The notes under the pieces: generated by a model
The model's input: only the letters and a program-made list of their open reading frames with translations
Told to the model about the DNA's origin: nothing
The model's database searches: none
Source of the DNA: Trichoplax sp. H2
Lineage: Eukaryota
Direction of reading: 5' to 3'
Length of the DNA: 64,000 nucleotides
Assembly: GCA_003344405.1 (NCBI GenBank)
Contig: NOWV01000011.1
Coordinates: 744,001 to 808,000, forward strand
Position numbers and translations under genes: made by a program
Shown here: one piece after another, positions 2,354 through 45,847 of the stretch
How positions within the stretch are numbered: position 1 is the stretch's first letter
Layout of the letters: every line of letters starts with the position of its first letter

Positions 2354-3183
2354 TTAATCATAGAAGGCACCGCCGATCCACCAATTTGTTGTCGATGTGC
2401 TGTTCATAGTACAAGAAAATTTCGAGTGATAATGGACATAATTACCAAAGATATTTTCGCCAGATACTACATCAGGAACGTTAAACCTTCCACAATTTAC
2501 TTTAGCGTGTGGAAGATCTACAAACAAATGATAATTGCTATAGCTGTAAAACGGAATATTGCATTTACTGCATGAATATCCACGTATATTGATGTAATCG
2601 ACTACGGCGCAAATCCAAGCATTTCTAGCACTAAAGAAGCTATTATACGCGCAAAAGGATACTCTTATGTAATCACGACGATTTGCTAATCCTTTCTCGT
2701 TTTGGTTATCAAAGTTACATGTCGCGCGAAAATGCGTGGATGAAGCAGCTTGTTTCAATGCACTCATTTTAGCTTTAGAAAGTCTATAATTCGACCAATT
2801 GGGTGTACATTCATTAGATGGAACATTATAATAAAAACTCTTACGAAAGGTAGTAGTTGCTGCATTGGTTCTTGATAGAGATTCTATAAGAGTCCATGCA
2901 AATCCAGGATCTGATTGAAAGTCGCAAAATGCAAGATAGGGTTTGTTTGTAGAATCGTGGAGTGTGAAATATCCATTTTGGGAAACGTGATAAATACTTC
3001 TAACAGCGGCACACGTTGTCGGCTTTGGATTAACTACCTAATCGATAATGTGAAGAATTCTTATAGTGCTAACTTCAGCTACGATGCTATAATGAAATAT
3101 TCATCTAAATAGCTCACCGCTGATCTTGCAATCGGTAGTATGGCTATTACCATAAAATAGAAAAATAAAGTGTATCGAAGCAT
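2354..3183 (-). CDS. Secreted fibrinogen-related/intelectin-N-like family protein, copy 1 (subfamily A), intact, 249 aa; exons 3183-3118 and 3037-2354
   Basis: Exon 1 MLRYTLFFYFMVIAILPIARSA (signal-peptide-like), GTGAG donor, TAG acceptor, phase-0 intron of 80 nt. Exon 2 is open: VVNPKPTTCAAVRSIYHVSQNGYFTLHDSTNKPYLAFCDFQSDPGFAWTLIES... and continues into ORF 2354..2767, ending TTNWWIGGAFYD. Confidence 0.9.
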
Positions 3184-5195
3184 ATTTAATTTGCAATACG
3201 AAAAATTTCTGTTCACTATCGACAGTAGCCGAGAACTAGCAATAGAGAGTTTGAATTGATAATCCCAAATATCGAATTTGTCGACCTATTTATGTTCATG
3301 TGGAATTAAGATGATTATTCGAGGAATGTAGAGAATCAATTATAATATCCCGTAACGTATGCCAGTCATAGCTAAAATATAAATAAATTTTGCGTTTGTC
3401 ATGAACTTTAACCTAAATATTACTAATACAATGTTTAGATAATTTTAGTTAACGATTAACCCTCTGATTTTATCTTAGTAGGGCCTCAATAATATTGATT
3501 TTAGAAATGCTCAGCCTAATATTTAAAAATACCTTAGACTTTGGCATAAATTTCATCAAGGTTAAATTAAATAACCTAAAGTGGAAGTTCGTGATCACTT
3601 TATAAGTTGTGCCCAGTGGCATGAAAATTTTCGCTTATTCCAGGTCAATATGCATATGTAAAATAAAAGAACTAATTCAATCGAAAAAATAAACTCCTTG
3701 ATACCGTAATCTATTTCGAGAGGAAATGCTACCGTAGATATTGATTTAACAACGATTAATAATGTTAAATGTAAGTTAAGAGAAATAAACAATAAACACT
3801 GTAGCACTCTGTGGTTGTAGGCCGATTAAAGTAGTCAGTAGCAGTCTCGGCTATAGTGTTGCTTGTGATGCTCCCAGCGTAGTACGATTTATGTCATGTT
3901 ATTTATGATTTTGGCATCGTTATTGCATCAGAAATTTCGATGCATTGATTTTTATTGTGTAATTATTAGAACATTGAAAAGGGGACGATTATTATTGTAA
4001 CAGCTGCAAAGGATATGTTCTCGCTTTTTGCTGTAATCCTCTTTCCATTTCGGAATAAAATGCTGTAAGCGTAAATCCTCATGACCGTAATGTTAAGAAT
4101 AACGTTAACATGACTCTTTTCTAATTTATTCGAAAATGTGTAAGAAATTGCAACATAGCCGTGTGGTCATACTCGAAGCGCCAAATTATGTAGTAGTTGG
4201 GTTTTACAACCCCTTAGGTTCGCAATCGTCTAATTCAAAATCTAAGTTATTGAAATTGAGCAAATTTCTAACGTGACACAAGATCAGATTAACACCGTGT
4301 TTAACCTTAGAAGTATCCGTTTATTAATAGAGCGTCTGACAAGAGAAGAATCCACTTTTCTTCCCTCATAAAAATAGTTGAAAGTGGGCTAAGACAAAAT
4401 GGATAATTGATTTAGCCTCCACGATAACAATTCCATATTACCTAACAGTTATATTAAGACATTACACAAAAACATCACCCTATATAGCTGTCTACCGCGG
4501 CCTTATACGCACATAGTATGGGTAGCATAAGTACACCGTTTCATCATTAGCAGTCATGAAATTACTTTATAAGCATAGTAGACTGTACAACTTCTTAATG
4601 CTACCGTACTCAATTACTACTGTAATTAGCTGAAACTATTACAGCGTCATAGGAAAATGAAAGTTATGAGAGTTATATGTAATATGATGCTTTTCCCGAT
4701 CTGTAATGAAACTTGTTCTACCAACTATAATTGGTGTGTAGATCATACAAGTAATTTTATAATAGCAGATTTTATTACTGGCTCTCTACCGATTGAGATG
4801 CTACGTAATAGTACAACAAGCTCTGATAGACAAGGAAAATTTCTTATAATAGCAGATCTTAGAAAAGAAAGACTAAGAACAACAATAACTGAAAAACGTA
4901 GCTGCTTATCTAACTTCGTTACAACATAACGATTACGAACAACTTAACACTTTGAGAACTTAGTATGAGAATAAAATTCTATCATTACTACAGTTTTCTA
5001 CGAAACTTAAGCCAGTGCATTCTTTAAACCAATAACATGATCATATTCCAACTTGTTATTACAAATCTATGATGTTGACAACCTACACAGTAACACTATC
5101 ATCATCATCACAAACACTTATTACAAATACTAAATTTTTACGCTAACATCGAAGGAATGATCAAATTATTAATAAAAGATTTCACTTACAAAGTA

Positions 5196-5420
5196 ATTTC
5201 ATTGGCGAATATCGATTATGTGAAATTTATGTAAGTATGTGCACTTAGAGGGTCATAAACCATATAGTATGGAATTAATTACATTGCTATTAGCAAATTG
5301 CACAGCGATTTCATTGGCGAATATCAATTATGTAAATTTTTTCCACTCATAAATGCGGACATGTGGAGGGCCATTGGTCATGTAACATACAACTTAACTA
5401 TATTACTGCTGGCAAGTTTG
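5196..5420. repeat. Diverged tandem duplication, ~112-bp unit, 2 copies
   Basis: atttcattggcgaatatc(g/a)attatgt at 5196 and 5308, with weaker similarity continuing downstream. Confidence 0.7.
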
Positions 5421-6117
5421 AATGTAAATCTTTAAAGGTTAAAGATCAATCATGAGATTGTGCAATCGTTAAAATGACAGGTATTTGATAGTATTGATTA
5501 GTTTACTAAGATATGATTTGTAATTGCTCTTCGATTGATGTAGTTAACTGATGGTAATTTCATATATGTTAATAGAACTGTAGTGAAGCCCCAAATAAGC
5601 TTAAGACTAAGATTATAGAATAATGCGACAATAGATAAATTGTGCGCTAGGCTGTAAGACTGCATACGTGTCTAATTATAGAAGATGTTTAAAGTACGTA
5701 TTGTAGTAAATTATATTGAAATGCTTATATTAAGAATCAGAGATAATAATAGATAGCGTTAATTATGTTAGTATTGTGAGATTTGTATTGTGATGCTTTA
5801 ATCAGAAGCGCGATAGTAAATTTAGATATGATCTTGTAACTTAATTTATGAGATCTGATTGTGTTTGAAAGAAAATCATTGTGTCACTAATTGTATATAA
5901 ATTGTGAATATTGCTATGATAATTCATACCGTCCAGAGATAGTCCTATTGAAGCTAGATAGCTCTTGGTACTTGTAAGATGAACCTAATCTATGTAATAA
6001 AGTGAAATTTACAAGAAACTGTAGTTCTATTGATTTTTTAAAAGACACTTTATCACAAGAACATAATCTGGTTTAGTCGATAATAGTGTACCACGGAAAT
6101 AGCGGTATGGCTAGAAA

Positions 6118-6954
6118 CTAGTCATAAAAGGCACAGCCGATCTACCATTTTGTAGTCGTGGTGCTATTCGCCACACAAGAGAATTTCGAGTCGGTATAAT
6201 AGGATTGACCAAAACTTGTTCATTTGATATTGCATCAGGAAAATTAAATTTTCCACAGCGCATTTTGGCGATTGAAAGATTCACAATTGTACGGACACTA
6301 CCATATCCAATAAATGGAATACTACATTTACTGCTAGAATATCCTCGAATATTGATATAGTCAACCTCAAGATAATCCCAATCACTTCTAGAAGTAAGGA
6401 AATGCCTACATGCACAAAATTGTACCTTAATATAATCTTGACGATTTGCTAATCCTTTCCCCTTTGGCTATCAAAGTTACACGTTGTACGGAAATGAGTC
6501 GATGATGAAGCACTTTTCAATGTAGTCATTCTAGCTTTAGAAAGTCGATAATTTGATCAATTGGGCATACGTTCATCGGACGGGACATTATAGTAAAAGC
6601 TCTAACGAGGTGAAGAGCTTTTTGCGTGGTTAGTCGACAGCGATCCTATAAGAGTCTACGCAAATCTGGGATCTGATCGAAAATCACAAAAAGCGATATG
6701 GTTTACTTGTAGAATCATAAAGTGTATAATATCTATTTTGAGGGGCGCGAATTATAGTCCTAATAGCGGTACATGTTATCGGTTTCGCTTTAATTACCTT
6801 ACAAACTAATAATATAAAGAATTGTTACAATATCGGATTTATACTACGAGCTCTATTTTAAAATCCGAGCTAAACTACTCACCGCCAATTTCAATGCAGG
6901 TATTATAGCTATCAAGATCAGATAAATAAGTTTATACAAAGTCCACTGAGCCAT
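6118..6954 (-). pseudogene. Family copy 2 (subfamily A), pseudogene
   Basis: Signal exon MAQWTLYKLIYLILIAIIPALKLA|GTGAG. Exon 2 aligns over its full length to copy 1 but has frameshifts and stops (TAG at 6656-6658 replacing the W of AWTL; TGG TAG at the terminal WW). Confidence 0.88.
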
Positions 6955-7627: not shown

Positions 7628-7665
7628 ATGGATTGAAAATTTACGTTCTACTTGCAACTTTGATC
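7628..7665 (+). pseudogene. Possible short relic of a family copy
   Basis: ggattgaaaatttacgttctacttgcaactttgat (..RSTCNFD) resembles copy 9 ggatcgaaacactatcgttcgacctgcaattttgat (GSKHYRSTCNFD). Flanks are not clearly alignable by eye. Confidence 0.35.
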
Positions 7666-8063: not shown

Positions 8064-9400
8064 TCAGTATCGACCTCCAATCCGCCAATTCGTAGTTGCT
8101 GCATCCTTTATAGCACAGCCGAATGAAGCATCGTAAAAATCATAGCTTTCGAAAACAGCTTCGGTATTTGCCTTCTGTACTATAGTTTGCACTTGGTCGC
8201 ATTTTACTTTCAGCTGAGCAGGATTTATTAATGAATAAAAATTAAGAGCGCCAATATATAATGGAATGCTAGAGTGGCTACATGATTTTCCTCGAAGATT
8301 TAAACACCTGACTTTAGCGCAATGCGATTCTTCACTTAGTATCTTTCTATTCTAATCATGGATTTGAGTATAGCAAATGAGCATAGCAAGTTTCAAATTA
8401 TGTGATATACGCGTATATACTTTATTGTTTTAATTAAAAGTTTCTATATCAATAAATTTTTAAGCCAAGAAATTAAAAGAGTTAAAGACTTGTGTCTGAC
8501 AGGTCTATCAAATGGTAATACTATCTGTTAAATGAGCACATTATCGTAAATCGTCAGCAAAGCGACGGGAGTTTGCACTAGTAACTTACAGTAAGAACTA
8601 CGGTAGTTATTATTTTGTTACAGTAAATTATGCTGTACTGTAGTAAGAGTTCTTATACGGTAACTAATGTTAATTGATTATAGTATTATGTCTTGTAACG
8701 CTTGTGATGAATATTCTGAAGATATTCAACTATAGATGATACTATGAATAATTCTGCATATGACCATACTGTAATCTAATTATCTAGAATCGTTCAGTAC
8801 ATGTCTAAGATTATGAATAATTTCTGTATTAATTTAGCTATACAATATGAACTAAATTTTCATGAACTGTTGTGACTAATGATAGCAGCTACCGAAGGGT
8901 ATTTAAGCTCGGTAGATAGCTGAATAAAAGAGAGTCCTATAGCTGTTTAAGGTAGAAGCAAAGGCGTCTTAATTCTTGTGAGATAGTTCAGGAATACTGA
9001 ATCCCGGAGACTACAGTAATTTAGAGATTTGTCTTACCTTATCTTTGTCACGAAGCTGGCTTGTGACAACTTGATAAAAGTAATGAATTAGATTGTATCT
9101 CAATTAATATATTTACGTATTATGGTCATCATTTTAAAACAGTAGATATTTTAGTAATATATTTATCGTAGCATTGTTAAGTAGATAAAAGGTTATTAAA
9201 ATGTAGTCGAAATTACAATATGAGCACTATTAAGTTCCAGAAGTCTATAAACTGATTCAATTTAGTGCTTATATTGTCGGCTAAAGATCATAATAAATGT
9301 CCTTCCTAATGAACCGTTTTAATGGATTGCTTAGTATCCAAGTAAATCTGGACTCTGATTAAAATCATAAAGAATAAGATAGGATAAAGCCATCGAATTA
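8064..9400 (-). pseudogene. Highly degraded family copy 3, split by a solo LTR
   Basis: 3' part (8064-8294) reads RGKSCSHSSIPLY...NTEAVFESYDFYDASFGCAIKDAATTNWRIGGRY*. 5' part (~9240-9385) reads roughly YLILYDF*SESRFTWIL...N*ISYRL, matching the CDFxSEPPFxWTL and NWxxYRL motifs. Confidence 0.7.
8493..9068 (+). mobile_element. Solo LTR (576 bp) with 5-bp target-site duplication ACTTG
   Basis: Starts TGT and ends GTGACA. ACTTG at 8488-8492 and 9069-9073. Internal TATTTAAG (~8900) is followed by AATAAA (~8923). Confidence 0.75.
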
Positions 9401-12435: not shown

Positions 12436-15309
12436 AGTTGTGTCTTGTAGAGATTGATGCAGTTGTTCAGGTATATAGCAGTTTGCTACATTAACAAAGT
12501 CACTACTAATTTTTTAAAGTACTTATACGGGTATGGCATGATATGCTATCTTTAAAATGTAAAGTTGGAAGGCTTACTGTGTCACCATACAGTTGTTATA
12601 TACTCTAAACAGCAACTAACACATATCTGGAACCAACTCATACGGCGTAATACTAAGCTATAGCTGTGATATTTAGATTGTAAAGCGAACGAAACAGTAG
12701 GCAATAGAAAATCGTAGCACTATAATAAAAATTATCATCTTGACATAATGTACGGCACTCAAATAAGCTAACGAACTCTACTTACGGTAGAGAGTATCGA
12801 AACAGCACGTCACCGATAAACACTACAGTACTCGTATATTATTAAAATTAAGTAAGCTGCTATAGAAAATTTTAATGATTAAATATGACGATATTACTGT
12901 TATGATGCTAAGTACATACCTGATTTCTTCATAGTATTTAAGCTACGTAGTACTAAAATAAGTAAGTAAGTAAACTCCTATTGATGACAATGGAGTACTG
13001 TAACAGTCACTAAAACCGGACATCATGCTATACGAATTGAGCCAGCTATTAGTAGTATGCCTCTAGTAGTATAGCTTTATTATTGTATATTTAAATGAGC
13101 ACTATTTATTATTCAGTACTGTAATACTTACTCTTAGCCATACTGTCCACCATAATGTAATTAAGTAAGTACTGTATAACACTTATAGAGAGTTTCCGCA
13201 AGCACAGTTTACAGTATATCTTTGGCTATTTCTAAATCTGCAAAGAACCTTACATTTGTCACTGCAAATCTTTATTGGTACCATTATACCCGTATATCCA
13301 AACACTTTACAAAATCAACTTCAAAATGCCATATTAAAATTATTTGATAAGCTACAACTTGTGGGATCTATGCGTAGCACATTACTATGGTAGCTAGCAC
13401 GATAGCTAGCAAACGGGATAAACTATTGTGGCACAGTTCACTGCTTGTATAAATGCGCTCTCTTTCATTATACCATTGCATGCACAGCCACCACATAGTA
13501 TATATCTTGAAGATGCTTTAATGTTATGTAGGATAGAGGTTTATAACATACTAATTTCTAGCTAAACTCTAATAATTATATTATAATTGATATCCCGTGT
13601 ACGGATATCACTGAATGGAGCTGAGTTGGGTTGTAGTGTTATTTTCCCTTAGTTGATTAACATAACGAACTGATTGTATCTACGATTAGTAAGTAACATA
13701 AATAATAAATTGGATCATTTACATTACATTAAAGCGGCATACGGAGATTTACTGTAATATTTGTACTGCACAGTGTACTATTCTTAAAATATTACCATCA
13801 GCTATGAAAATTAAGTCGTAGACTAGTTAAGGTTCAATTTTGTGATTGCACTAATATCAAACTAAGCGGTAAAATATTTATGCTGCGCAAGTCTAGTCAT
13901 TGCAGTTAACATAGACTGATATTTTACTGTATTCGATTAGTTATAATATCTAGCGAAAATGCTATATACATGATCGGAAACGCAATAAGTCTAACTATTT
14001 GCGGTCCATATGATACGTAGTTGCAGTATTTACATTTCTTCCCTGTCATCTAAATTTATGCTTATATTAGAAAATAAACGTTTTAGAATGAAAAATTTAT
14101 TCTTTGGATAACTTTAATCATTAATTATAGTAAAAATGCCATTAAATATTTTAATTGGTCGTACTCTGAATTAAAATATTCATAGAATTGCAAAAATAAA
14201 AATACAAGCAGTTTCACAACGTAGTGGTTCACTGATATCCATATTGAAATTAAAGTTTGTCATTACTGATATATATGAACCAAAATAGTTGAATTAGCCA
14301 GAAGCAAATACTCCTTTAGATATAGTCGTATCAAAATAGATACCTATTTTCCTTAAGATTGCTGGTACTTATTTTTTGGTGATTTACAGGTTTGCATTTA
14401 GGGTAAAAGATCTTACCATACACATTAAAATTACTTTCACCTTTTTGGTGCAGTCAAGTTTAATTTAGATTTAAATTTTCTTTTTTCATGCTTCATATCA
14501 TTGGATATCCAGTAATTATCCTGTGATGCTAATTACCTACTGATAAAAATTACTGTCATGGCTATGACTTACATAGCAGTTAAAGTACCTCTGATTATAG
14601 TAAATACAGATATTTTTGCTGAATCTAAAGTTCAAATATTTAAAAATATTTTTAATTTCACTTAAATCGGTAATTAATTTCTATCCGATACTTTGGGTTC
14701 AGATAGCGATCAGAAAAGTGAAACCACTCTACCAGTCTAACGTCTTTTATAATTTTAATAAATTGTTACACATGAGCCTTATAAACAGCTCCTCTTCCCA
14801 CGAAGCGAATTTAACAGCCACAATGTCGCTGCTGCTGTGCTATTAGTTTGGAGCTGAATAGCGTAAAGATATTTTTGTAATAAGAGTATGAGTGCAAGAT
14901 GACAAGATGACGAGAATTAAACCATAACAACTATAAATTTACAAAAGATTTATTAAGTTAATGTAGCATTAGCAAGTTTTAATTATGTAGGAGAAAAGAA
15001 CGATTTACGAGTAACTTTCTCAGATTTCAAGAGATAATTCGAGGCACTACCTAAGGCCCAAAATTAAAAAAATTGGCAATGTTGAATCGGTTATTCATTA
15101 AAGAATTTTTTAGCCATTAATTTGAACCGAGAACATTTTTAAACTTTGACACAGTATTTTAGTATCAAAAATATAAACTGTTGTCTTACGCAAGATTAAC
15201 TAAGAATACATAATTGGAAACTATTCAATTAAAAGGCGTTATGAAATTTGAAGCATTTATGAAAACTTAATTTATAAGCGATCAGACAGAAAGTCCAAGC
15301 ATTTTTAGA

Positions 15310-15875
15310 TGCAAGGAGATGATCGTATGAGCAAAATGATACCCTTAAGTAATCGTGATGATTTTGTAACCCCTTCTAACTGTTACTATTAAAGTACACG
15401 CTGCACGAAACGAGTCGACGGTGGAGCATTTTTTAGAGTCATCATTTTAGGTTTGGAAAGTCGATAACCCGTCCAATTGGGTGAGCACTCACCAGGTGGA
15501 ACATTATTATAGAAACTCCTACGAAAAGTTGTGCGGCGCGCGTTATCGGTTGATAGCGATTCGATTAGAGTTCACGCAAATCCAAGATCTGAGCGAAAGT
15601 CGCAAAATGCCAGATGAGCTTTAGTCGTAGAATCGTAGAGTGTATAATATCCATTCTTTGTCGCAGGATACTCGCTTCTAATTTCAATGCATGTTATTGG
15701 TTTCGACTATATTTCCTAAAAGAAAGTATCGTATATAATTGTAACAGAAGACGATCTTACTTTCGGGATAAGTGACCATGTAGCAGCTAGTTATGATTCA
15801 TGTATTTACCTTTAAACTTGTTAGTGATAGTATTACGAACATTATCAGTTAGCTTGAGACCATGTATTTAATCAT
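15310..15875 (-). pseudogene. Family copy 4 (subfamily A), 3'-truncated pseudogene
   Basis: Signal exon has an in-frame TAA. Exon 2 reads EI*SKPITCIEIRSEYPATKNGYYTLYDS...AFCDFRSDLGFA*TLIES. Homology ends just after DYLRVSFC. Confidence 0.85.
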
Positions 15876-30840: not shown

Positions 30841-32519
30841 ATTTTACCTAAAGTGCACATAATTCACAAGGAGGGATGACAGAGGGTTTTCGCGTCTAAT
30901 TTTCTCTCGTTTTGTGGGAGAGATCAACGAAAATCTAAAATAATTCCTATTAATTACCAATGTAAAGTTCAGATTACATTCATTCTTTTTCTATGGTTAA
31001 AATTATAATGAAATTATTATTACATATCGCCTCAAATTGGTACATGCATACTCAGTAATGTAACTTGATAATACCTAATAACTATTTTATATTAAAAATT
31101 ATTGCATTATTTGCCTTAATCTTCGTCTTACGATGGTCCGTTATACAGTAAATTAAACTTTTCTTCTGTAGTGAAGTCTCACCATTTCATCTCCGTAATT
31201 CTAATAAAACAATGTTACATACTTTGATTGACGAGCAATACATCAGTTTGACGGGTAACTACTTCTGACGAAACAGAACTGATTACTTTGCGCAGTAAAA
31301 GATAACTTAACTTTGTAATAAACTATAATAAAATCTGCTATTTGAGACTATACGTACTCTGTATACTAGAATGATTATAAGCATAGGCCTAGTTTGCAAA
31401 TTCTATTTTTTTCACAGCATAGCCAGAAAAGAATTCAATAATATGAAATAAACCCTTAAAATTAGTACTACTTTACGTCGTAAGAAGGTAAACATTGATG
31501 CAGGAGGAAGAAAAGGGAGATGAAGTCGTATTAAAACGGTCATCACAAAGCCTCTCTAATCTTGATAAAGAAGTAATCATCAATTGAATTTATGGTAATA
31601 TAAGTAATTTACTAAGGTGCAAAATTTGTAACGAGGTTTGCTATAAGATGTTGTTAATGAGTTTAGCCGCTCTAGAACGCAAAGGAAACTGGAGTGCATA
31701 GAACATTTGAATTAACTTTAAATTCATGCTAACCCTGTATCAAATTTTACATTAAGTTATGCACCTCAGTAAATCTTATGCAAGATGCTTCAACTCATGT
31801 AGTAAAAATGGGGATAATATGTACGGTAACGAAAGAGCAAAGACAGAGGAAATTATAATTATTAACATTACTACTATAATCAGCACGACTAGAAGTTTCC
31901 ACTTTGGACAACTAGTATGAAATCGTCTGCGCAAATAATTTTATCACATTGCATCTGGACCTTACTTTATAGCAGCAAATTATTGCGTCTGAACTACGGC
32001 ATCTTATGAGTTTACATTCAATGTATCATAAAAAAGTTGTTGATGCCTAACTAGCAGCCCTGATATGATTAGCTCGAACTTGTGGCTCATCTTCTGCCAT
32101 TTAATGTCAACGGCTTAATAAATGCAAGGCTCAAGTAATTACTCATTATTAGAGCATTTAAAGTATTCGAAAGACAGCCTCTTGCGGAGATGACTTCACT
32201 GTTTATCAAAGTGAGGTAGACTACATGCCGTAATTCTCGGGCGTAGAAATCTTTATTCTTTTAATTGTTGTATTATATCCAATGGCATTGGTATCTCAAA
32301 TTGAGGCTAACAACAAAAGGAATTAATACAGTGATCTACCTATTCATCAACTCTAGATGTTTGCAGTCATCAAGTACCGTACTATCAGAAATAATAAAAT
32401 TTTTAAGTATAAATTTGAACAACATCAAAATATGCCAGTATTCTGCAGAAATTTTGTATTTCGAGAGCAACTTTTTGAATAGCTCAACTGAACACTCTTA
32501 ACTACTCATTAAATTCAGG

Positions 32520-33370
32520 ATGGCAAAAACCTCACATCTTCTTCTTGCAATCGTGGCTCTACTACCATTTGTTATATCTAAAGTAAGTTTCAATAGTCCT
32601 CCTATCTTCAATTCCGAGATTCTGCACTAATTGCGACTTCAATAATTTGAGTTTTATTTATAAAATATTTACCGGTATATCCACTTCTGTAGATGCATCA
32701 TAAACCTTAATCGTGCTATAAAGTCAAGCAATACCTTAATCCTACAGAAAGCGGGTTTTTTACTTTATACGATGTTAACAATAACCCATTCCGAAGCTTT
32801 TGCGATTTCGAATCAGAATCACCTTTCGTCTGGACATTAATCGAATCTTTAACATTGGAAAACGCTCAAAAAGCGCCTTTTCGTAAAAGCTTCGAGATTA
32901 ATCTTCCATTAGGCAAATGTAACACATCAATGTCTCTATTTCGTTTAACATCAGCTCATAGAAGCTCAATTTTAGGTGCGTACGGATCGAAACACTATCG
33001 TTCGACCTGCAATTTTGATATTGATATGGGAACTGGCTTAGCTAATCGTCGTGATTATTTAAGATTTTCCGCATGTAAAGGCCTTTATATTCTTACCACT
33101 AACAGTGCTCGTTGTGTAGAAGTAGATTATATCAACGTTAGAGGGCAATCATGTAGAAAATGCAGCGTACCATTTTACAGTTCTACATCACAGCATCTTC
33201 ACATCGATCTCATTGTGGCTAGTACCTACTGTAGAAAATTTGTTGTTACTGACCATATTGCAAATGAAGACGTTTTCGGTCACTATAGCAATCTTAATCC
33301 TACATTTTCTTGCGCCACAAATAAAAATTCAACTACTGCTTGGTGGATAGGAGGAGCATTCATCGAATGA
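32520..33370 (+). pseudogene. Family copy 9 (subfamily B), full length except one in-frame TAA at 32708-32710; exons 32520-32582 and 32693-33370
   Basis: MAKTSHLLLAIVALLPFVISK | MHHKP*SCYKVKQYLNPTESGFFTLYD...FCDFESESPFVWTLIES, then ORF 32855..33370 with all conserved Cys. Confidence 0.8.
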
Positions 33371-35224
33371 ACTTTTCTCGTACCGTATTTGTCAGCACAT
33401 GTTCGCGTCTCCGTTGATTGTTTCTACAAGATTTTCGATTATTTGCTATGAATATTAGATCTATTCTAGCACCATTTTAGCGTATTTAAATCAGATGTTA
33501 TAACCACAATTCAACTTCGTATCATTATGGTAGATCTCTACTATTATTAACATGTAATAGATCGCACTTGATCATGTAAGATAGCTGATAATGACTTCAT
33601 GTGTGTTCTCTATACCTTGCATCTCCTACCGAGATACCAATTAGCAAATTTTAGCCTTATAATAAGGCTTATTTATTTTAAAGTCAATTCTGTACATAAG
33701 TTAAACGATTAACCTTCCTAATATGAAAGGATATGAGTAATAAGTATGCATATGATTATGCTTAAGCAGGTCAAATAAATACGAAGGCGAAAAGATGCAT
33801 TTTACTTAGCGATCCTTGTCAGCACCTATAAAAGTAGGTTTCGCCGCGGCCCTTTACATCTTAAAACTTCCTTTTTAATAATTTGACTATAAATGCGCAT
33901 TATCGATATCGCTGATAGAAGTAATATTACAATGGACGAAAAATTCAAATAAAACTACCAACTTCTGAATCCCAACGCAAGGAAATTAGGGGAAAGCACA
34001 GTTTATTATAATAACTATCTAAAAATTCTATTAATTGTACATGATAAATTACAAAAAGGGCAGAATTGCTGCCTTAACCAATCAAATTATCAACGTAAAA
34101 TACGATTTACTGACGAATTAGGTAAATTATTTACTTCACCTTCTCTATCTTGAACTACTAAGCTATTGAACTAGGCCATCTTTTATTTGCCACATAGAGC
34201 AGTAGTTAGATTACTATCTTACAGTACCGTTCTAAAGTAATCCTAATCAAACTAGCAATTGAACGCATATGATAAACAAATTATACCCTAGATTCCCGAA
34301 AGACTAAATTAATAAAAATTAACCGTAATTTAACTACAACAAGGATTTCCTACAGTATACGAAAGGTAACTATAATAAAGCATTATAAAAGATCATCAAT
34401 CTTAAATTAGAATCCTGATTAGAACTTTCAGGTTTTCAGTGTATTTCGTTATAAAATAATGTCATTTCTGGTGTAACTTCTAGTCAAGTTAGCTGCTAAT
34501 TTTAAGATTGCAACTTGATTGCTGTATTATCTAAATATATGGCCAAATTTACAATCTTACATTGTGCAACTCTTAGCAAAATTAAGTTAACGAATGCTAT
34601 TAAATTCTAGTCAGAACAAAGTGGTCATGTTTACGATATATTAAAACACTAAGTAGAATCTGCCATAATTAAATCAAATTAAATTACTTTTTAAGTCACA
34701 TTACTTACTGAAATTAAATAAACTTGAAGAATTCTAAAAATTAACCTTCATTACGTAGATTTTACTAAATTATCAATTAAAATACAGTATACTACATGAT
34801 GTTGTATGGCTACATTTAGGACTACTGGTACCGATATGAAAATTATCTTACTTTACAGCTTACACTTATAGCCATGTAGCAGCCTACAACTGTTAATGCT
34901 TTAGATTGAAAATTATTTACTAAATACAAGCAGACACTGTTCTTCTCAGCAAGAGGCTTAAAGATGTTGATGAACGCATCTCATCGGTTGCTTGTACCTC
35001 TTAATAACTTTTATCTTAAATACTTTAAGATTCGATCGATTTTTTTCAGAATAAATTGCGATATACTGTATGTGAATGAAGTTTCGTCTAATATTAATAC
35101 TAGTAGCTCGTATTAGTCATGTTTGAGTTGTGGCAATGAATAAGTGGAAGAATAAAATCAGTATCGTCTCTAATATCAATTCAATCATAATACGGCTCGG
35201 TACTGCATCGGGAAGCAATAATTA

Positions 35225-35436
35225 ACAACAATTATCTTAATATAGCTGTTGTGTTAAGAGCCTCAAATCATTTCTTTCCTAGGAGCAATGTCAAAATATC
35301 CATAGCACATATCGTAAGAATGATTGTTGAGCTACAACAATTGCCTTCATAGCTATTTTATTAAGAGCCTCAAAATCATTTCTCCTACGAAAAAATGTCA
35401 TAATATCCATCGTACACATAATAGGAATAATTGCTA
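35225..35436. repeat. Tandem duplication, ~108-bp unit, 2 copies
   Basis: ttaagagcctcaaa(a)tcatttct...aatgtca.aatatccat..cac at ~35254 and ~35361. Confidence 0.75.
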
Positions 35437-36275
35437 CACTGTGTATGATCAGCTCAATATCACTTCTTGTTCATTTACTAGCACAGAGAACTCGAAATAA
35501 GATGGAATAATTTTGCATAACAATGGAAGTAGAGCCAAGAAATGAATAATATGCATCCAATAAAATTTCCGCTACCATTACCAGAATTCATTTACTATAT
35601 TCTGGCTGGTTAGTTGAATATCAAGCAAGTAACCAGGAAGCGGATTTCTAAAATTTGGGAATAAGGAAAGTTGCAATTTTCTCGTTAATTAAAAGATGTA
35701 ACATTTATTAGGTACGATATCGATACAGTTTTAAGCAGAGGGGCTCAAATCTTTAATTTGAAATTTTAGAATAGACTCCCATACTGCAATTTATCTCGTA
35801 TTACAAAGGATTGACTAAGATTGTGTTTATTAAATGACATCAACAAATTTCCCGTTTTCAAATCACTGATTATGGGAACGAGGCTATATTGATTTTATAA
35901 TTGACAGCTAATCATTGAATCGCTCCACGATGTCACCTCTACGCACATGATTTCTATAGGCTCCATTTCCACTTTTTACTTTATAATCAATTATTGTGAA
36001 TGAATGTATCGAAGGTAAATAATTTCAATATCTAATTAATAGTCTTACAAGAGTCGAAAGAATATAGACTGATAGCGAGGACACCATTGTTCCCTAACGT
36101 AAATATTTCCCCTTATTCATGAGTGTCAAATATATTCTATTCACTAAAGCATTACAGTTAGAATCACTTATAAGTAATAAAACGTTCAGTATATAGCGGT
36201 TATAAATCAGAACTACGATTTTGTGACAAAGATCATTCGCTCGAAAATCATCTTTACAAGATTGTAATTGCAGAC

Positions 36276-37127
36276 ATGGCAAAACTTTGTTTTCTAATCC
36301 TTATGGCGTTTGCCATCGTTCCTGCGGTAATGTCTTCGGTAAGTTTGCCATAATTATATTATCCTATTATTCAAACGAGTGTTTGATTTCTTAAACAAGT
36401 TATTTTATTCTATCTTCATCGCACAAAGGTAATCAAGCATAAGCCTAAATCGTGCCATGAAATAAAAGAGTTTATGCAAACAACCGAAAATGGATTCTAT
36501 AACCTGTTCGATTCTAATCTCAGCCCATATACAACTTATTGCGATTTCGAATCGGAGCCCCCATTCATTTGGACCTTAATTGAATCCGTTACCTTACACG
36601 AAGCCCAACAGTTAGAAAACCGAAAATCTTTTTATTATGACCATCCTCTTGCTGAGTGTCATATAAATTGGAATAAATTCCGTTTATCTAAAGTTCGAAT
36701 ACAAAGTATCCAAGGTTCATACGGTACAACGCATTATCGAGTTACTTGCAACTTTAACCCTGTTAATGGAACTGGCTTAACAAACCATCGCGATTACCTT
36801 CGAGGTTCTCTCTGTCAATACACGAACTTTTATAGTGCCACCTCAAGTTACTATTGCGTTCGCGTTGATTACATTAACGTTCGAGGAAAACTTTGCCGAA
36901 AGTGCAGGGTACCATTTTATGGAGGTAATACAAATCATCAGTTTGTTGATTTGGGAACAGCAGCAACAGCTTGCGATAGATTCGACGTTCCGGATAAAAT
37001 ATCGAGTGAAGATGTATTTGGAAACTACAAAAATGTCAATCCACAGTTCTCTTGCTCCGCCAATTCCAATTCTACAACCAATTGGTGGTTAGGCGGTGCT
37101 TTCATTGCAGAACAATTAATATATTAA
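36276..37127 (+). CDS. Family copy 10 (subfamily B), intact, 253 aa; exons 36276-36338 and 36429-37127
   Basis: MAKLCFLILMAFAIVPAVMSS|GTAAGT...AAG|VIKHKPKSCHEIKEF, then ORF 36474..37127. Confidence 0.92.
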
Positions 37128-39102
37128 ACTATTTCTTTGATAGCTAGTTTAGTAAACGATCCTTACTTTCTACTTTAGTACTCAACTACTGTCTCGCCGT
37201 CTTTATCAAGAGTCCGGTTATTAATTCGATAGAAATTAGACTATTAGAAGTAGTTAATTTTCCTTCTAGCGGACTAGTTTTCATATTGTTGTTTGATAAA
37301 AATTTTAGTTTGCAAACGGAAAGGAAGCTGTGCTGTGAAATTGTAACCTTTACATCATTTTTACCGTTACTGTATCCTCCTGTTCGTAATTTTTACGTTA
37401 AAATCTCCTGAAAATTCGTTAAATGTTATTGCAGCATAAAATTTAGTAGAAGAGGAATCGATAGATAAGATTTCGACCATTTGAAACCTTAATAAAAATA
37501 AAATACGCCAACTTCCTTTAATAATTTTACTCTCATTGTGACTAACTAAAAATGTCTTCATTCAATATTCTCAACTACTATTCTTTTTACTGACCAACGA
37601 TGCAATAATCTGCGCTAGCATATTAACAAAGATCTATTTGAGTACATAAGGCAATTGTAAGGAAAGTGTTAATCATCTTTCTTTCGTACTTATATCATAT
37701 TCCTGATTATTGATGCCTTACTAATTCACTTTCTACCGACATACATGATATGATATGTTACAATTTTAATTAGTTCAGGGATGTTCCGATTGTATTGAAA
37801 TTAGTTACTGATATGTGGCTTACGTATGAATTTCGGCCAACACTTGATAGAAATTTACACACAACTATCGCTATAGTTGTTCCAGTTAGTACTATCAATA
37901 AATATGGCAAACTGCCGCTACATTTGATTGCCCTAGGCCGCCGAAACTCTTTCTAAAACTACACACCTACGCTCTTCAACTGCATATGTAGTAATTGGCC
38001 AAAAGTTTTGTTACAGTAACCTACACTGTGGCCGTTGTCAATTAATATTAATTTTAGAGCTACACGCGTATTAACCAAAAGTATTTCAATTGAAACCACA
38101 AGTGCTTTTGCTCAAGTAATGTACATAGTAACTCTTTAGTCTCAAGCTGAGAAATTACAGTGATACAAGGTCATTTGGCTCTCAAAATCCCTAACGCAAC
38201 ATTATTTTAATCCCGAATTCAACTTTTTTATGCTATTACTATTTCTTGATCAATTTATGATTTGCAACTACGTGCTCATAGAATTCAAATAGCCCGAAAA
38301 CGAGGCTTTAAAAATAATACCTTTGGCAGTAAACATAATAAGAATGGAATTTGGGCTAATGCTCGAATTGAGATAGTTAATTAAGTACAGAATTAGGTCG
38401 ACAGCAGCTAAGATTTTTTATCAATTAAAAGTATAGAGTATATTTATGCTAGTTTCGCTATCTTACGAACTCACGATCGAATCCTGAAGTTTTACCGAGT
38501 TGGATACACTGATTCGATAATTTTGGGATAAATTGAATCAATTTTCAGATGGTACCAGATATTGCATTCTACTGCATTATATTTTTCTCCCAGATTATAA
38601 TACCACTACAGAGTATTATGTTGAGTTGATACGACTAACCTAACAGATGGTAATTTTGCAGGTGGCGATAACTGTACGCACCATGCTATCAGTTTAGTAC
38701 CCTAACTACTGGAAATATTAAAAAGATCGTAAATGCTCTACATTAATAGTATAAATAATTATATAATTTAATCTGTCTGGTTTATAGTTGCTAATCAAGT
38801 TGCTCGATATTAAATATATATCATGACGAAACCATTTTTGCTTTCTTTACCTCCTTCAGTTTAATACTTCTACAATATTTCAGAAAGTTTGAACGGCCAG
38901 AATACGAAGACAATTTTCATGTCGTGTTTATAAATATCTTGATCTTTCGACCATACGAGTATGTTAATAGTATTTTTCTCCTCCCTAGACTACTGCTTTT
39001 CAACTTTCTGACGGCACGATATTTTCAAGATTTATATATGAGAGAACAAACGGATTACAGCGAGTAAAGGTCTATTCGCATTTAAGTTGATATACCATGA
39101 TG

Positions 39103-39550
39103 TGTTGTGATAGATAAGGCAATGAATTACTAAAACAAGTATATAATACGGTATTACAGCTATACTATTTAAAAACAGTAAATCCTAAATAAAAAGTGAT
39201 TTCTAGTAAGCCTACTAGGTGAAGTGTATCAAAATCCCTCGTGCCAACATTAACAACTAAGCGTGGAAACACAACGGCTAGCACTGAAATTCATTGTAGA
39301 AATCTATTTAAGCTCGTGTGTTTGTAGAATAAATCAGTAGTTGCTCAAGAATGGTGTAAGACTAGTGTAGTGAAGAATAGTGTAATATATTTAGTTATCT
39401 GTGGAGTTCAGTTAAGAAATCGAGTTCTCGTATATCACTAACATAGAAACTGGAGATACTGGAAGAAGTAACCCGAGTTATTATAGTTACAAGAGAGATT
39501 CTTTACTTAGTTAATTTACGTTTCCTTTGTCATAAGAGAGGGTTGTGACA
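39103..39550 (+). mobile_element. Degenerate solo-LTR-like element
   Basis: Likely start TGTTGTGA (as at 45861). TATTTAAGCTCG plus GAATAAA as in the 8493 element. Ends TGTCATAAGAGAGGGTTGTGACA. No target-site duplication found, so the 5' boundary is uncertain. Confidence 0.5.
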
Positions 39551-40375
39551 GTACTCTTTTTACAAATTTATAGAAAATCGGTGAATACTTCTTAAAATTT
39601 TAAGGAAGACTACGACTATAGATATATTTGTAGCACTGCTATTTTATCAATTAATGGCTTTATTGACATAAAATATTGCGGAAGTCCATCAAGCGTAAGA
39701 CAGTGGAAATAAAGTGTGACGGAGGTGCACTGCCTTATGTGCTGGAATCGTCTGTAATACCGGTATCGTTAATGTTTTTTATCGTGATCATGAATAGCAA
39801 ACGTTGAAGAATATGCCATAATAGAATTTCAAATATGTTTCATATTCGAATTATGACGGTTATACGGTTTTTTATTGAATGGCCCTTGTACAATAACCAT
39901 TATTCAAAGTTTTTAAATCAGTGTGTTACTGCAATAATTGCGTCTCACAATAACTATCTTAGTCAAATGGTATTTTTTAAAAGGCTTTCATTACAAGTTA
40001 GTGATTTCAGCTAATTACAGTAATTTAGGGCTAACAACCCGTACACTACAACAAGATTTTAGAAATAGTAGAGCAATAATTAATTACTACAAGAATCTAG
40101 TCTAAAATTGAAAGTATTCCGAGCTCAAAGCGAAGTGAAGTCTCTTCTCCATCGTAGGCTCATCTCTGCAGTTCTTATAAACATTTCGTTAAATCCATTT
40201 ATGACAACTTGATTCATCTACAATCAGACATGAGTCATCAAACAAAAATACTTTTTTTAAATGGTACATCATTATCTTCTACAGTCTAAAATAATTCTAC
40301 TTAAGATGTCGCTACTCTTCTATCAACGTCTAGCCCCTTTCGTATAATCAAATATGGGTGCATCACTACAGTTAC

Positions 40376-41236
40376 TTATTTCAGGTATGGGCCGCCGATC
40401 CACCAATTAGTTGTTGATGCGCTTGTTGCAGTACAAGAAAAGAAAGGATTAACTTTCCAATAGGCACCAAAAACATCTTCACTTTGTACTTGATTAGGAA
40501 CTTTAAATTTTCCGCAGGACGCTGCCGCCTGCGGAAGATCTATATGTAAATGCCAAATATTACTAGTCCAGAATGGAATGCTGCATTTTCTGCAAGAATG
40601 CCCGCGAACATTGATGTAATCGACTGTCACACACGCCGCATTAACCTTAACAGCGAAAAAAAAATTAACTGCGCAAAATGATGCCCTTAAGTAATCACGA
40701 CGATTTTGCAGTCCTTTCACGCTTTGGCTATTAAAGTTACATGTCGCACGGAAATGAGTCGAGGATGGAGCATTTTTTAATGCCACCATTCTAGCTTTCG
40801 AAAGTCGATAGCATGACCAATTAGGTGTGCACTCGCTCGATGGAACATTGTAATAAAATCCCGTACTAAATTTAGGGGTTCGTGCATTGGTTGTTGATAG
40901 TGATTCTATAAGTGTCCATGCGAATCCAGGATCAGATTGGAAATCGCAAAATGCTAGATAAGGTTTACTGATAGAGTCGTAGAGTGTAAAATATCCATTG
41001 CGCGACGTATGGTATAGATTTCTTACGGCAGCGCATGTTATCGGTTTAGGTTTAACTACCTAGTCATTGGTATCAAGAAACACAGTACTTCGTTATAATA
41101 TCGAGTTATATTCGTATTCAGCTATGCAGATGCATTTCGCTAAGTGTTGTTTTAATTTTAAGGAACTTACCGCTAGTCTTACTGTTGGAAGTAGTACAAC
41201 AAGGCTTAACCACGTTAATAAGGTACAGTTGGTCAT
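40376..41236 (-). CDS. Family copy 11 (subfamily A), intact, 249 aa; exons 41236-41171 and 41059-40376
   Basis: MTNCTLLTWLSLVVLLPTVRLA|GTAAGT...TAG|VVKPKPITCAAVRNLYHTSRNGYFTLYDSISKPYLAFCDFQSDPGFAWTLIES..., in frame with ORF 40376..40789. Confidence 0.9.
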
Positions 41237-42162
41237 TCTCATCAAATTATCAGTAACCAAGTTGCAATATCTTGAAGGTAAATAGGTGAAAATTAACTGC
41301 AGTATCAATTTGAATCCTTTTATATGTTTGCTTTCTTGTAACGATATGTTTAGAATACTATTAATTTATGAGATATTCCAACATACTGTAGACAGAAGAA
41401 AATTCATGCAATTGAATATAGTTATAAGCCACAATTGAAACTAATTGCTGGCATTATTTCTGGACAGAGAATGCTTCTGGAAAATCTTGTGGAAAGAATA
41501 ATACTCCGCTAATTAAAGGATCTCTAAAGATATTTACATGTCGCTATTAGCTACCTTGAGCTTCCATTAGTAAATACAATAATGTCTTATTTTATAATTT
41601 TGAACGAGTAATTGTAAGGCAAACTATATTAGCAACATACCCTTGTATGTGTAACAAACTGAGACTCGAAAGATAAAAAATAAGTATGTTTGTGCAATTT
41701 CAGTTCACTTTGCTGTTTCACGGATCTGTATCTCTGTCCTGTTTTTACTTTCGGACTTTTACATTTTCGCAACAGTTTTAAGGGAATGAACAACAGCCTT
41801 ATTTGTAACCAATTAAATTAAAATATATGTTGTCCTAACAACTACCGGTTGACAGCTATGTCTTTAAAATACTTAAGGAAACTACTTACTCAGTTAATTA
41901 TTGCTGTACATTTAGATAATTATGTACGACGTTAGAAAATCTGATTTATTGATTATAATTTATAGACAATCTCATAGGGCGTATGCTCGTAGTGGTATAA
42001 GTAAATTATTATGTACATTATGTCAAACTCTAAGGCAAATACTAAGGAAAAAATAGCGCCACAGTAGTTATTTCTAGGAATCATACAATCAGCATATTGA
42101 TTTCATTATGGCTATATTTACTATAGATGTGGCAGTAACGGTAATATTAAATTGTCTCTAGT

Positions 42163-42660
42163 TGTGTGGAACATGGTGTCAGTTCCTCCTATGTTAGCGC
42201 TATATATATATATTGATTATCTATTGGTGGGAATCGGAAAGATGTAGCGGTGTTAATGGGCCTCTTGGCGAGAAGTGCAGGTGGAAGTCCTAGAAGATTG
42301 ACTATTGGTCGAGGAGCTGAGAAACAAGGTTCGAGGCGATATAAACAAGACGCGGATCATGTTAAAGGGCTTCTATACTGTAGCCGTTACGATATACTAT
42401 TTTGTATAGGGAAAATTGTGATAGAGTTTTGATGTAAATATTTACATCAAAGATAGATATATAAGGAGGCTAATATAATTGTAGAGGTAGATAGATTCAT
42501 TCATAGGTTAGCTTGAAGAAGACATAGTAGATATTCTTTTGATATTATATCCGTAGTTTTTAATGCCTGTATTTTAACATCGTAATAAACTTTTTATATT
42601 AACCGAGTCTTACTCATTCTTGTGAGTCGATTGTAGTTAATATAGGGAAGTAGTATTACA
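42163..42660 (+). mobile_element. Possible LTR-like element (low confidence)
   Basis: GC-richer block with GATATATAAGG (~42457), AATAAA (~42584) and a TTACA end. No target-site duplication found and boundaries are uncertain. Confidence 0.3.
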
Positions 42661-44080
42661 GTAGCCTTTGAGATACTTCAAGAATGGAGGTTTTAAATCC
42701 ATTCCTGAGAAAAATAGCAGCAATTTCGAAACTGATCACACGTACTGTACAGGATTGCTGGACTTTGGCCGGGCAATACGCGTATTGGCCAACTTCGGGT
42801 TTTGGCCGTAACCTAAATACCTATAACGACTAAGCTAGTGGTTGATTACAGTATAATTTTAATTGCGATGAATTATAGCTAATCGTAAAGCCATTTACTG
42901 TTAATAAGAACTGTTTGCTTTTCGAAAGAAATCTTTGTAATATTGTAGACAACTGGATCGCATTCATTCTTCTGTGATAGATATAGTGATTCTGAATTTC
43001 ATGAATAAGTATCGAAACTATGAGCAAATGTATTTATAGCTTTTTTTGTGTTTCAGCTGCTATATACGTTATCACATAGTCGCATATACAGTACAACGGC
43101 AAGGTATAATTGTGACTAAAACTTAACCATATGAAGAGAATCAATAAAAAATAGGTTTGTGCCTGTTAGTACTGTATGGCTCTAATTCATCTTCACATGT
43201 AATGCATAGCAATAGCATGTATTTTACGTATCTACTCTAGCACATATGGGCCCTATCACATGAATGTAATCTTTACCTGACGATTTTATAAAACTAATCG
43301 GCTATGAAAGCTCTACAGTTTTTGTTGCTACGTTGATTCATTTTCAGTTTTACCTTTCCTTTTTAATTCCTCATCTCCGAAAACAAGTTAAGCAGATCGA
43401 TCGATTTATACAATGGGAAACATTGATTATTTACATGAGGAGGAGTAGTTTAATTTAGTGGTTTAAGTCTAATTGTCGGCCACCTTGTTGGCGTAAATAG
43501 ATCGGGCTAAATATATCAAGAACTGTCGACAGGCGCTGGTGATTTACTTCGAGCTCAGGGTATCTTACTTTAGATTCTTGTTACTAATTAATTATCGCTC
43601 TACTTTTCTAAATTCTTATAGTAAAAGCCATGTTTACTTTTCTATCTTAACTGAGACTATTATTGTAAGAATTAGACTTCTAAACAGATAGGATACTTCG
43701 GATACTTTTCTTACAACTATTACAAAGTGTATGTGATTCCTGAAAAATAATTTACGCCAATTTCATAAAAGAAAACCCTATTTAGTGTGTGACGGTACAA
43801 CAACGCTCTGAAAACACGCTTTCTTGAGAATATTTCTAGTTTCGAAACGATAGTAAACTACAATTATCTACTTAAAACAAGTACTTAAATGGCAATTATT
43901 TACTTTTTTCATCTATTAATAATTAGCATTTCTAATAGATTTTTAAAGAAATTTTAAATTCTTGTATATCGTAGTAAGTAGACGAACATAGGAGAATTCC
44001 TAAACCTAATATATAGATTCTACTTGATATTTTTATTTTTCATTTTCAAAAGCCACATACTTATACGAAACTTAGTGAAA

Positions 44081-44920
44081 ATGGCTAAATACTCGTACGC
44101 TTTACCAATATGTTTGATCCTGATTGCTATACTGCCAATGGCAAGGCAGGCGGTGAGTTACTTGACATATTGAAACATAATACTGTAGTAATACTATTCA
44201 ATAAGTCATAACGATATATTTATTCTTCATGATGCTGATTAGGCGGTAAAACTGAAGCCAACAACATGCGCAGCCATTACGAGCATCTCGTATCTCGCGA
44301 AATGGATATTTTGCAATGTATGATTCTACTTATAAATTCTATATTGCATTTTGCGTCTTTCAATCAGATCCAGGATTTGCATAGACACTTGTAGAATCAC
44401 TCTCTACTCTCTATGCACGAACGACTAAATTTCGTAAGAGCTTCTATTATAATATCCCAACCAATGAGTGTATGCCAAACTGGTCAAATTATCGACTATC
44501 TAAGGCTGGAATGACTACAGTAAAAAATACTCCATCATCAACTCATTTCCGTGCTACGTGTAACTTTGATGATTAAAGCGAGAAAGGATTGAGGAATCGT
44601 CGCGACTATCTAAAGGCATCATTTTGCGAATACGATTATTTTTTGATTTCTAAGCTGCTTGGACTTGTGTTCTAGTCGATTATATCAACTATCGCGGATC
44701 TTCCTGCAGCAACTGCCGTATTCCTCTCCGAAGTGATATTAATTGGCATTCACATACAGATCCACAGCTCGTTAGAGAGTCTTGTGGAAAGTAGTTTAAT
44801 GTCTCAGATGCAATAGCTAGCGAAGACGTATTTGGTAGTTGTTATAATTTTAACCCAAGATTTTCTTGCGTCACTAATAGTTCAACAACAAAAAATTGGT
44901 GGATTGGTTGTCCTATCACC
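44081..44920 (+). pseudogene. Family copy 12 (subfamily A, inverted orientation), pseudogene
   Basis: MAKYSYALPICLILIAILPMARQA|GTGAGT, exon 2 from 44243 (AVKLKPTTCAAI...). Contains frameshifts, TAG at 44382-44384 and further stops. HFRATCNF, VDYINYRGSSCSNC, SEDVFG and NWWIG are retained. Confidence 0.88.
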
Positions 44921-45827: not shown

Positions 45828-45847
45828 NNNNNNNNNNNNNNNNNNNN
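45828..45847. other. Assembly gap (20 N)
   Basis: Run of N; ~42 nt of sequence is duplicated on both sides of the gap. Confidence 0.99.

Follow-up and report, generated by a model that had tools for sequence, protein, structure and literature searches.

What does the tandem array of small secreted-protein genes in a 64-kb stretch of the Trichoplax sp. H2 genome encode, how much of it is alive, and is it new? The stretch (64,000 nucleotides; GenBank assembly GCA_003344405.1, contig NOWV01000011.1, positions 744,001 to 808,000 of the forward strand), here called the window, is AT-rich eukaryotic DNA with a G+C content of 0.29–0.36. It had been annotated from its letters as carrying a birth-and-death array of secreted proteins with an intelectin/fibrinogen-like N-terminus and an unrecognised C-terminal domain. 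The region is most of one published placozoan intelectin cluster of Trichoplax sp. H2; its intact genes encode proteins that are modelled over their whole mature length as one fibrinogen-related (FReD) fold and that probably act as secreted recognition molecules.

Six long, mutually similar stop-to-stop open reading frames (219–246 codons) were present in the window. With the six long exons as tblastn queries, exactly 12 family loci were found within 2354-44923 and none elsewhere, and two family profiles run in six-frame hmmsearch (E < 0.05) returned the same 12 loci and nothing further in the 64 kb (table 1). The initial annotation had counted at least 12 copies, five of them intact, one with a single stop, one truncated and at least five decayed, and the census reproduced these figures: c2, c20, c28, c36 and c40 are intact, c32 has a single stop, c30 is truncated, and c6, c8, c15, c25 and c44 are decayed, with several stops in c6, c15, c25 and c44 and frameshifts in all four of these save c25. 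The spliced products of the intact copies are 249–253 amino acids (aa) long, and the ten conserved Cys remarked on earlier were recovered in the alignment of the placozoan copies. Copy c36 was identical to TrispH2_001772 (100% identity and coverage), exon 2 of c28 was 100% identical to TrispH2_001770, and c2 was 98% identical over the aligned residues to TRIADDRAFT_63826 of T. adhaerens. For c20 an alternative upstream ATG at 21006 gives a 28-codon signal exon; in c32 the in-frame TAA falls on the Lys position of P-K-S-C, at the sixth codon of exon 2; and in c30 the family resemblance is limited to about 55 residues of the 72 exon-2 codons. The array is cut by the left window edge and continues beyond it. 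TrispH2_001764 and 001765 match the window at only 69% and 76% identity, respectively, and from the order of the locus tags probably lie just outside it.

Table 1. Family copies in the window, with search hits, exons and the splice joints found in read contigs (positions count from the first letter of the window).
Copy	Extent	Strand	tblastn/hmmsearch locus	Signal exon (exon 1)	Large exon (exon 2)	Splice joint (contigs of runs)	Subfamily	State
c2	2354-3183	-	2354-3037	3183-3118 (22 codons)	3037-2354 (227 aa + stop)		A	intact; intron 3117-3038
c6	6118-6954	-	6118-6818	6954-6883 (readable)			A	pseudogene; large exon with 3 frameshifts and 4 in-frame stops
c8	8067-8342	-	8067-8342	none found			A	C-terminal fragment only, family residues ~143-225, 34% identity
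c15	15247-15715	-	15247-15715	none found			A	pseudogene; 3 stops, 1 frameshift, end near residue 158
c20	20142-20988	-	20142-20825	20988-20923 (22 codons)	20825-20142		A	intact
c25	25302-26035	+	25394-26035	25302-25361			B	pseudogene; large exon with 2 internal stops, N-terminal part unrecognisable
c28	27931-28807	+	28115-28807	27931-27993	28115-28807	27993/28115 (X8, X15)	B	intact; TrispH2_001770 (251 aa)
c30	30446-30840	+	30622-30861	30446-30508	from 30622	30508/30622 (X8, X15)	B	truncated; stop after 72 codons, 93-aa product
c32	32520-33370	+	32693-33370	32520-32582	32693-33370	32582/32693 (X8, X16)	B	single-stop copy; TAA 32708-32710, otherwise open
c36	36276-37127	+	36429-37127	36276-36338	36429-37127	36338/36429 (X8, X16)	B	intact; TrispH2_001772 (253 aa)
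c40	40376-41242	-	40376-41059	41242-41171 (24 codons)	41059-40376	41171/41059, CT..AC on + strand (X8)	A	intact
c44	44081-44923	+	44246-44923	44081-44152			A	pseudogene; large exon with 2 frameshifts and 4 stops

A signal exon was sought upstream of all 12 loci. An ATG-initiated hydrophobic exon of 20–24 codons, ending exactly at GT, was found at ten of them (21–24 codons in the five intact copies, c30 and c32), and none was found for c8 or c15. In c32 and the five intact copies an AG immediately precedes the large exon, and the intron is therefore in phase 0; the resulting gene model has a signal exon of 20–24 codons separated by a phase-0 GT..AG intron from a single large exon. Contigs assembled from public runs were examined over positions 25001-45000, and for c28, c30, c32, c36 and c40 the joints of spliced contigs coincided exactly with the predicted phase-0 GT..AG introns. 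The two-exon model and transcription are confirmed for these five copies, and with them the shared phase-0 structure proposed from the letters. The functional claim made in the initial annotation had been staked on expression of the intact copies; c28, c36 and c40 are transcribed and spliced. Run X16 is an RNA library on record, and X8 and X15 were treated as RNA because they carry spliced joints. Run X10 covered genes and spacers evenly, contained none of the GT..AG intron joints and was treated as DNA. No contig of X8, X15 or X16 covered c25 or c44, an absence that is no evidence of silence. Transcripts of the broken copies c30 and c32 are still made and spliced; the contigs of c32 retain the TAA, with no other letter differing over 32693-32816 and 32693-32923. 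In two stretches, 39675-40341 (in the presumed 3' untranslated region of c40) and 41676-43009, contig depth was very high (up to several hundred), and the RNA-like runs, as well as X10, all showed numerous loose ends there and odd joints that are not GT..AG; a repetitive element or some other abundant transcript may lie behind this.

The identity of the protein was approached by sequence and by predicted structure. Against PDB sequences, a single copy gave a weak intelectin match (E 0.02), an 11-sequence profile reached intelectins at E 6.6e-6, and a 53-sequence profile reached them at 7e-10 to 3e-7 (XEEL 7e-10, lamprey lectin 3.5e-9, human intelectin-1 1.2e-7), fibrinogens being weaker (~1e-4) and ANGPTL3, tenascins and ficolins also being matched. 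In every case the PDB profile matches were confined to the N-terminal ~55 residues. The N-terminal fibrinogen-related/intelectin match had an hhalign probability of 96–97%, and the FReD N-terminal subdomain with its Cys pair and C-D...W-T-L core was present in the profile matches and in hhalign; the N-terminal parallel drawn at the outset was thus correct. AlphaFold2 was run with 11 sequences (model 1; predicted local distance difference test (pLDDT) 81.4) and with a 53-sequence alignment (model 2; pLDDT 92.2, predicted template modelling (pTM) score 0.87). The top PDB matches of model 1 in Foldseek were all fibrinogen-related, human intelectin-1 coming first (E 5e-5, template modelling (TM) score 0.41), and the predicted fold aligns with intelectin over chain residues 31–313. 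The globes of ANGPTL3, FGL1, tenascin and angiopoietin were structural matches about 2 Z units below intelectin, and intelectins were the best match by sequence and by fold in every search. In these models the whole mature chain is one divergent FReD fold, closest to intelectin, and forms a single compact domain of ~228 residues. Since the whole chain models as one FReD fold, the C-terminal part is predicted not to be a second domain; the unrecognised domain of the initial annotation becomes the remainder of that fold, and the AlphaFold and Foldseek check suggested with it gave a fibrinogen-related fold with intelectin-1 nearest. The identity and fold of the window proteins are very probably as described.

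How far the name intelectin reaches is a separate matter. In profile-profile comparison, profile A2 aligned over 88 columns with one newt intelectin, over 55 columns with 22 vertebrate intelectins and over 52 columns with 11 canonical FReD proteins, the C-terminal two thirds not being alignable to the latter. All of these alignments end in or just past the N-terminal subdomain; the similarity to intelectins ends after ~55–88 residues, and no sequence similarity to vertebrate intelectins was detectable past residue ~106. About 170 residues could not be aligned to intelectins or to canonical fibrinogen domains, in keeping with the earlier remark that the C-terminal sequence is unlike canonical fibrinogen. 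None of the six window exons, searched up to E 1, matched PF00147, and the gathering score of that model was not reached. A supposed equivalence of ED-FG / F-S-C / T-N-W-W with D-x-D / N-C-A / G-G-W-W of canonical FReDs received no profile-profile support and was dropped. According to the accessible text of PMC9682848, the structural calcium motif of intelectins, HENxxxGxCTxGD, directly follows the W-T-L-V-A-S strand; in the hhalign alignment WTLIESVTLHEAQQ...LENRKSF lies opposite this stretch with a 5-residue gap, and TrispH2_001772 reads TLHEAQQ-----LENRKSF at the position. Without this structural motif, any ligand need not be bound by the calcium/1,2-diol mechanism known from vertebrate intelectins, and the chemistry may be of another kind. 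The window proteins belong to the FReD superfamily and to the published placozoan intelectin family and are not demonstrated X-type lectins; "intelectin" is a classifier's label, which the missing motif makes doubtful.

The copies were assigned by best match and by tree to subfamily A (c2, c6, c8, c15, c20, c40 and c44) and subfamily B (c25, c28, c30, c32 and c36). In a quick, preliminary tree of 132 domains (support by Shimodaira–Hasegawa-like approximate likelihood ratio test (SH-aLRT) only, midpoint root), c2, c20 and c40 grouped with a support of 99, and c32, c36, c28 and Ta 60661 with a support of 90. All A copies at 2–21 kb lie on the minus strand and all B copies at 25–37 kb on the plus strand. 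Nucleotide identity between copies was 64–75% and was confined to the coding exon. Synonymous divergence (dS) was above 1 in all six of the 15 pairs for which it could be computed and beyond the range of the method in the other nine; in the six computable pairs the ratio of non-synonymous to synonymous divergence (dN/dS) was 0.09–0.23. From the identity and the high or saturated dS it follows that the array is old, and from dN/dS that the open copies are under purifying selection. The array is therefore an old tandem expansion of two subfamilies in head-to-head blocks (A minus, B plus) in which about half of the copies are dead. A birth-and-death character, as proposed, fits this mixture of intact and dead copies; the proposed rapid turnover does not agree with the divergence. 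Two inverted pairs of non-coding sequence lie between family copies (457-821 with 33947-34314, and 1458-1639 with 5874-6065; 69–71% identity) and may be what is left of old transposons or of the duplicated units.

The gene family, the cluster and a proposed role in surface defence have already been published. Kamm et al. 2019 (BMC Genomics 20:5, PMC6321704) reported 31 "placozoan intelectins" in Trichoplax sp. H2, of ~250 aa, with a signal peptide, an N-terminal FReD of up to 70 aa, ten conserved Cys and a C-terminal part that is conserved among placozoans and not alignable to vertebrates, arranged in five clusters of 2–9 genes. Dataset S3C of that paper gives nine models for the present cluster (TrispH2_001764-66 and 001768-73, without 001767), eight of which were assigned to PANTHER PTHR16146; c28 and c36 are both among its putative intelectins with PTHR16146, and the window copies agree with the published description (249–253 aa, signal peptide, N-terminal FReD match, ten conserved Cys). 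Mayorova et al. 2025 (PMC12013895) localised the paralogue Ta 60661, which we find to be 70% identical to c28, to dorsal epithelial cells by fluorescence in situ hybridization (FISH), and the accessible text assigns 10 of the 31 family genes specifically to "upper epithelial" metacells and others to mucocytes or gland cells; TrispH2_001764, 001768 and 001770–001773 are not mentioned in its supplement text. The UniRef name of TRIADDRAFT_60661 is "SCP domain-containing protein", for which no support was seen in the sequence and which looks like an artefact of cluster naming. The suggestion that the family may be uncharacterised thus gave way to these two papers; that of a lineage-expanded family of small secreted proteins is supported. 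What is added here is modest: the whole-chain fold, the missing calcium motif, a census of the pseudogenes, in which two dead copies prove to be transcribed, and the wider distribution in cnidarians and bacteria. With about half of the copies dead and two of the dead ones transcribed, the census matters for counts of "31 intelectins" and for readings of single-cell expression.

The family profile was searched with HMMER against 1.84 billion representatives and matched 923 proteins at E ≤ 1e-3, 518 at ≤ 1e-10 and 100 at ≤ 1e-30; most of the 150 matches listed of the 923 cover the whole profile. Full-length relatives are abundant in cnidarians, with examples in Acropora, Porites, Nematostella, Oculina, Xenia, Montipora, Rhopilema, Stylophora and Actinia, all annotated as uncharacterised, and Pfam placed PAN or PAN plus EGF modules ahead of the domain in two of four cnidarian examples. 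Neighbours in the ESM Atlas were mostly cnidarian "hypothetical proteins" (TM up to 0.84). By profile score the family is a discrete group, its full-length members scoring at least 107 bits and one partial match 88 bits; everything outside it scored at most 57 bits, over the N-terminus only (intelectin 46 bits). Across 117 full-length domains, six Cys were present in at least 96%, two in 72–76% and two (C98 and C150) in 7–8%.

In bacteria, two metagenome-assembled genomes (MAGs) of Candidatus Komeilibacteria each carry one full-length copy inside proteins of 1912–2054 aa that also contain DUF2341 and five LamG_3 domains. The Komeilibacteria domain (220 residues) is 32% identical to TrispH2_001772 over the full length, has eight of the ten Cys in common and shares RLSK, TCN, NVRG-CxxC, SSED-FG, F-C, STTNWW and all the C-terminal motifs picked out in the initial annotation. 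Copies without the first ~30 profile positions were found in a Deltaproteobacteria MAG protein and, four in tandem, in an IMG/GEM protein. A search of prokaryote genomes with the single Komeilibacteria domain gave eight loci, two of full length (both in Komeilibacteria MAGs) and the rest matching the N-terminal part only; with the animal profile, nothing was found in prokaryote genomes, the pattern being too animal-specific. On one Komeilibacteria MAG contig the match (4001-4663) lies inside a single open frame of ~1920–1990 codons, immediately followed on the same strand by an open frame of > 898 codons; this looks like a giant surface protein locus. In the tree of 132 domains, the 10 known placozoan rows fell within one 16-row clade (support 99), the bacterial rows were placed to one side of a branch with a support of 94, the cnidarian rows were spread through a large radiation and nothing was nested across domains, so that no direction of transfer can be claimed. 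In a literature search, no published description of cnidarian or bacterial family members was found among the matches listed.

From this distribution we tentatively propose, at just under an even chance, that the family is a discrete, ancient and unnamed branch of the FReD superfamily with a compact domain of ~220 residues, and is neither a placozoan oddity nor a group of true intelectins. Its marks may be the six near-universal Cys, the motifs RLSK / TCN / NVRG-CxxC / ED-FG / F-C / STTNWW and the lack of the intelectin calcium motif; it may have radiated massively in cnidarians, often behind PAN/EGF, and may occur as a module in giant surface proteins of Komeilibacteria and other bacterial MAGs. 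If this is true, the domain would either predate the metazoans or have passed between bacteria and early animals in an old transfer, and the ligand chemistry would probably be unlike that of vertebrate intelectins. With the full-length domain abundant in corals, anemones and jellyfish and present in bacterial surface proteins, the "placozoan-specific expansion" becomes one part of a broader lectin-like family, as yet unnamed, among early-branching animals.

What the intact copies do was then weighed. It is likely, in our judgement, that they encode secreted single-domain FReD-fold recognition proteins that bind microbe or biofilm glycans at the epithelial surface. The product of an intact gene would begin with a cleavable signal peptide and consist otherwise of one compact, disulfide-held FReD domain of ~228 residues, would be released from epithelial secretory cells as a soluble recognition protein, would bind microbial or biofilm surface glycans, and would serve surface defence and/or the management of food biofilm; the glycan binding, its chemistry and any oligomerisation are what we infer. 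The basis is the gene structure, the splicing and transcription of five copies, the fold, the selection and the census given here, together with the expression of paralogues in secretory cells taken from the papers. Several points weigh against it. Pfam gave no family at E up to 1 for the six long exons save a sub-threshold Piezo_cap on c20 (E 0.034, below cut-off and taken as chance). The region of the intelectin ligand site is not alignable by sequence to the 22 vertebrate intelectins or the 11 canonical FReDs, and HENxxxGxCTxGD, as given in the accessible source, is absent, the family consensus having neither H-E-N nor G-x-C-T-x-G-D. The read contigs were examined over 25001-45000 only, beyond c2 to c20, and among the intact copies the support from transcription comes from c28, c36 and c40; the status of X8 and X15 as RNA comes from their spliced joints, their library type not being on record. 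The accessible text of PMC12013895 names no cell type for the window's own copies, and neither there nor in that of PMC6321704 is glycan, calcium or microbe binding reported for any member.

Three other accounts of the array have to be set against recognition of surface glycans. The proteins could be secreted FReD-fold ligands for other proteins in matrix, adhesion or signalling, like angiopoietins, angiopoietin-like proteins, tenascin or FGL1, and not lectins at all, which we regard as unlikely. The globes of ANGPTL3, FGL1, tenascin and angiopoietin come within ~2 Z units of intelectin, the intelectin calcium motif is missing, the PAN and EGF modules of the cnidarian relatives are typical of extracellular matrix and adhesion proteins, and a laminin gene adjoins the array, adjacency being weak evidence; against this, intelectins were best by sequence and fold in every search and no receptor candidates are known. 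Signalling ligands form large, pseudogene-rich paralogue families expressed in distinct secretory cells less commonly than do recognition or defence proteins. The present family is large, has many pseudogenes and, in the accessible published accounts, is expressed in distinct secretory cell types, which also speaks against protein ligands. A use in external digestion, as secreted feeding effectors that bind the surfaces of algal or bacterial prey and are not immune molecules, is improbable to a further degree. Placozoa digest biofilms externally, several kinds of secretory cell, the mucocytes of the ventral epithelium among them, express family members (accessible text of PMC12013895), and the giant surface proteins that contain the bacterial relatives also carry LamG and sialidase-like modules, a setting that resembles an adhesin; yet the only paralogue localised by FISH in that text, Ta 60661, is in dorsal, non-feeding epithelial cells, and nothing found here separates a feeding effector from a defence lectin at the molecular level, since glycan binding is needed by both.

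That the array is largely a gene graveyard, its five open copies functionless and their transcription residual, is very improbable. Seven of the 12 copies are broken or truncated, and since the broken c30 and c32 are still transcribed and spliced, transcription alone is no proof of function. Such an account is opposed by the five copies in which, although synonymous divergence is saturated, frames of 249–253 codons, signal peptides, all ten Cys and splice sites are preserved, by the dN/dS of 0.09–0.23 and by the 98% identity of c2 to its T. adhaerens counterpart. Recognition of microbial or biofilm glycans at the epithelial surface is thus the reading that we prefer.

The array is bordered by a multi-exon laminin-type gene on the minus strand (47955-55537), in which a long exon with Laminin EGF (Pfam) followed by a coiled-coil-like stretch, further open reading frames with laminin-type EGF repeats and an exon resembling an N-terminal domain (54887-55537) were recognised. 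A tRNA-Arg(CCT) lies at 59488-59560 on the plus strand (ARAGORN, and Rfam with 68.2 bits). An assembly gap of 20 N (45828-45847) is flanked by direct repeats at 45560-45788 and 46226-46454 (229 bases, 98% identical) and is probably an unresolved assembly repeat.

Compared with known systems, the placozoan intelectins of Kamm et al. 2019 are the same family and the same genes as the window copies. In the accessible parts of that paper nine gene models are given for the cluster, at least two of them outside the window, against 12 loci in the window alone (seven broken or truncated), and the expansion is treated as placozoan-specific, with a FReD of up to 70 aa only and without the full-length fold or the cnidarian and bacterial relatives. 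From vertebrate intelectins (human intelectin-1, 4WMQ/4WMY; Xenopus XEEL, 4WMO/5ZC0; lamprey serum lectin, 7E1E) the window proteins differ in being ~50–60 residues shorter and in having no counterpart of the published structural calcium motif; from canonical FReDs (ficolins, angiopoietins, tenascin, fibrinogen beta/gamma; PF00147) they differ in giving no PF00147 match and in a C-terminal two thirds that cannot be aligned. The NCBIfam model NF040941 ("fibrinogen-like YCDxxxxGGGW", GGGWT_bact) spans 46 N-terminal residues only; TrispH2_001772 scores 24.7 bits against it, below the 30-bit cut-off, whereas the bacterial relatives score 66–164 bits. The bacterial copies under NF040941 are modules of giant multidomain surface proteins, whereas the window proteins are stand-alone and secreted.

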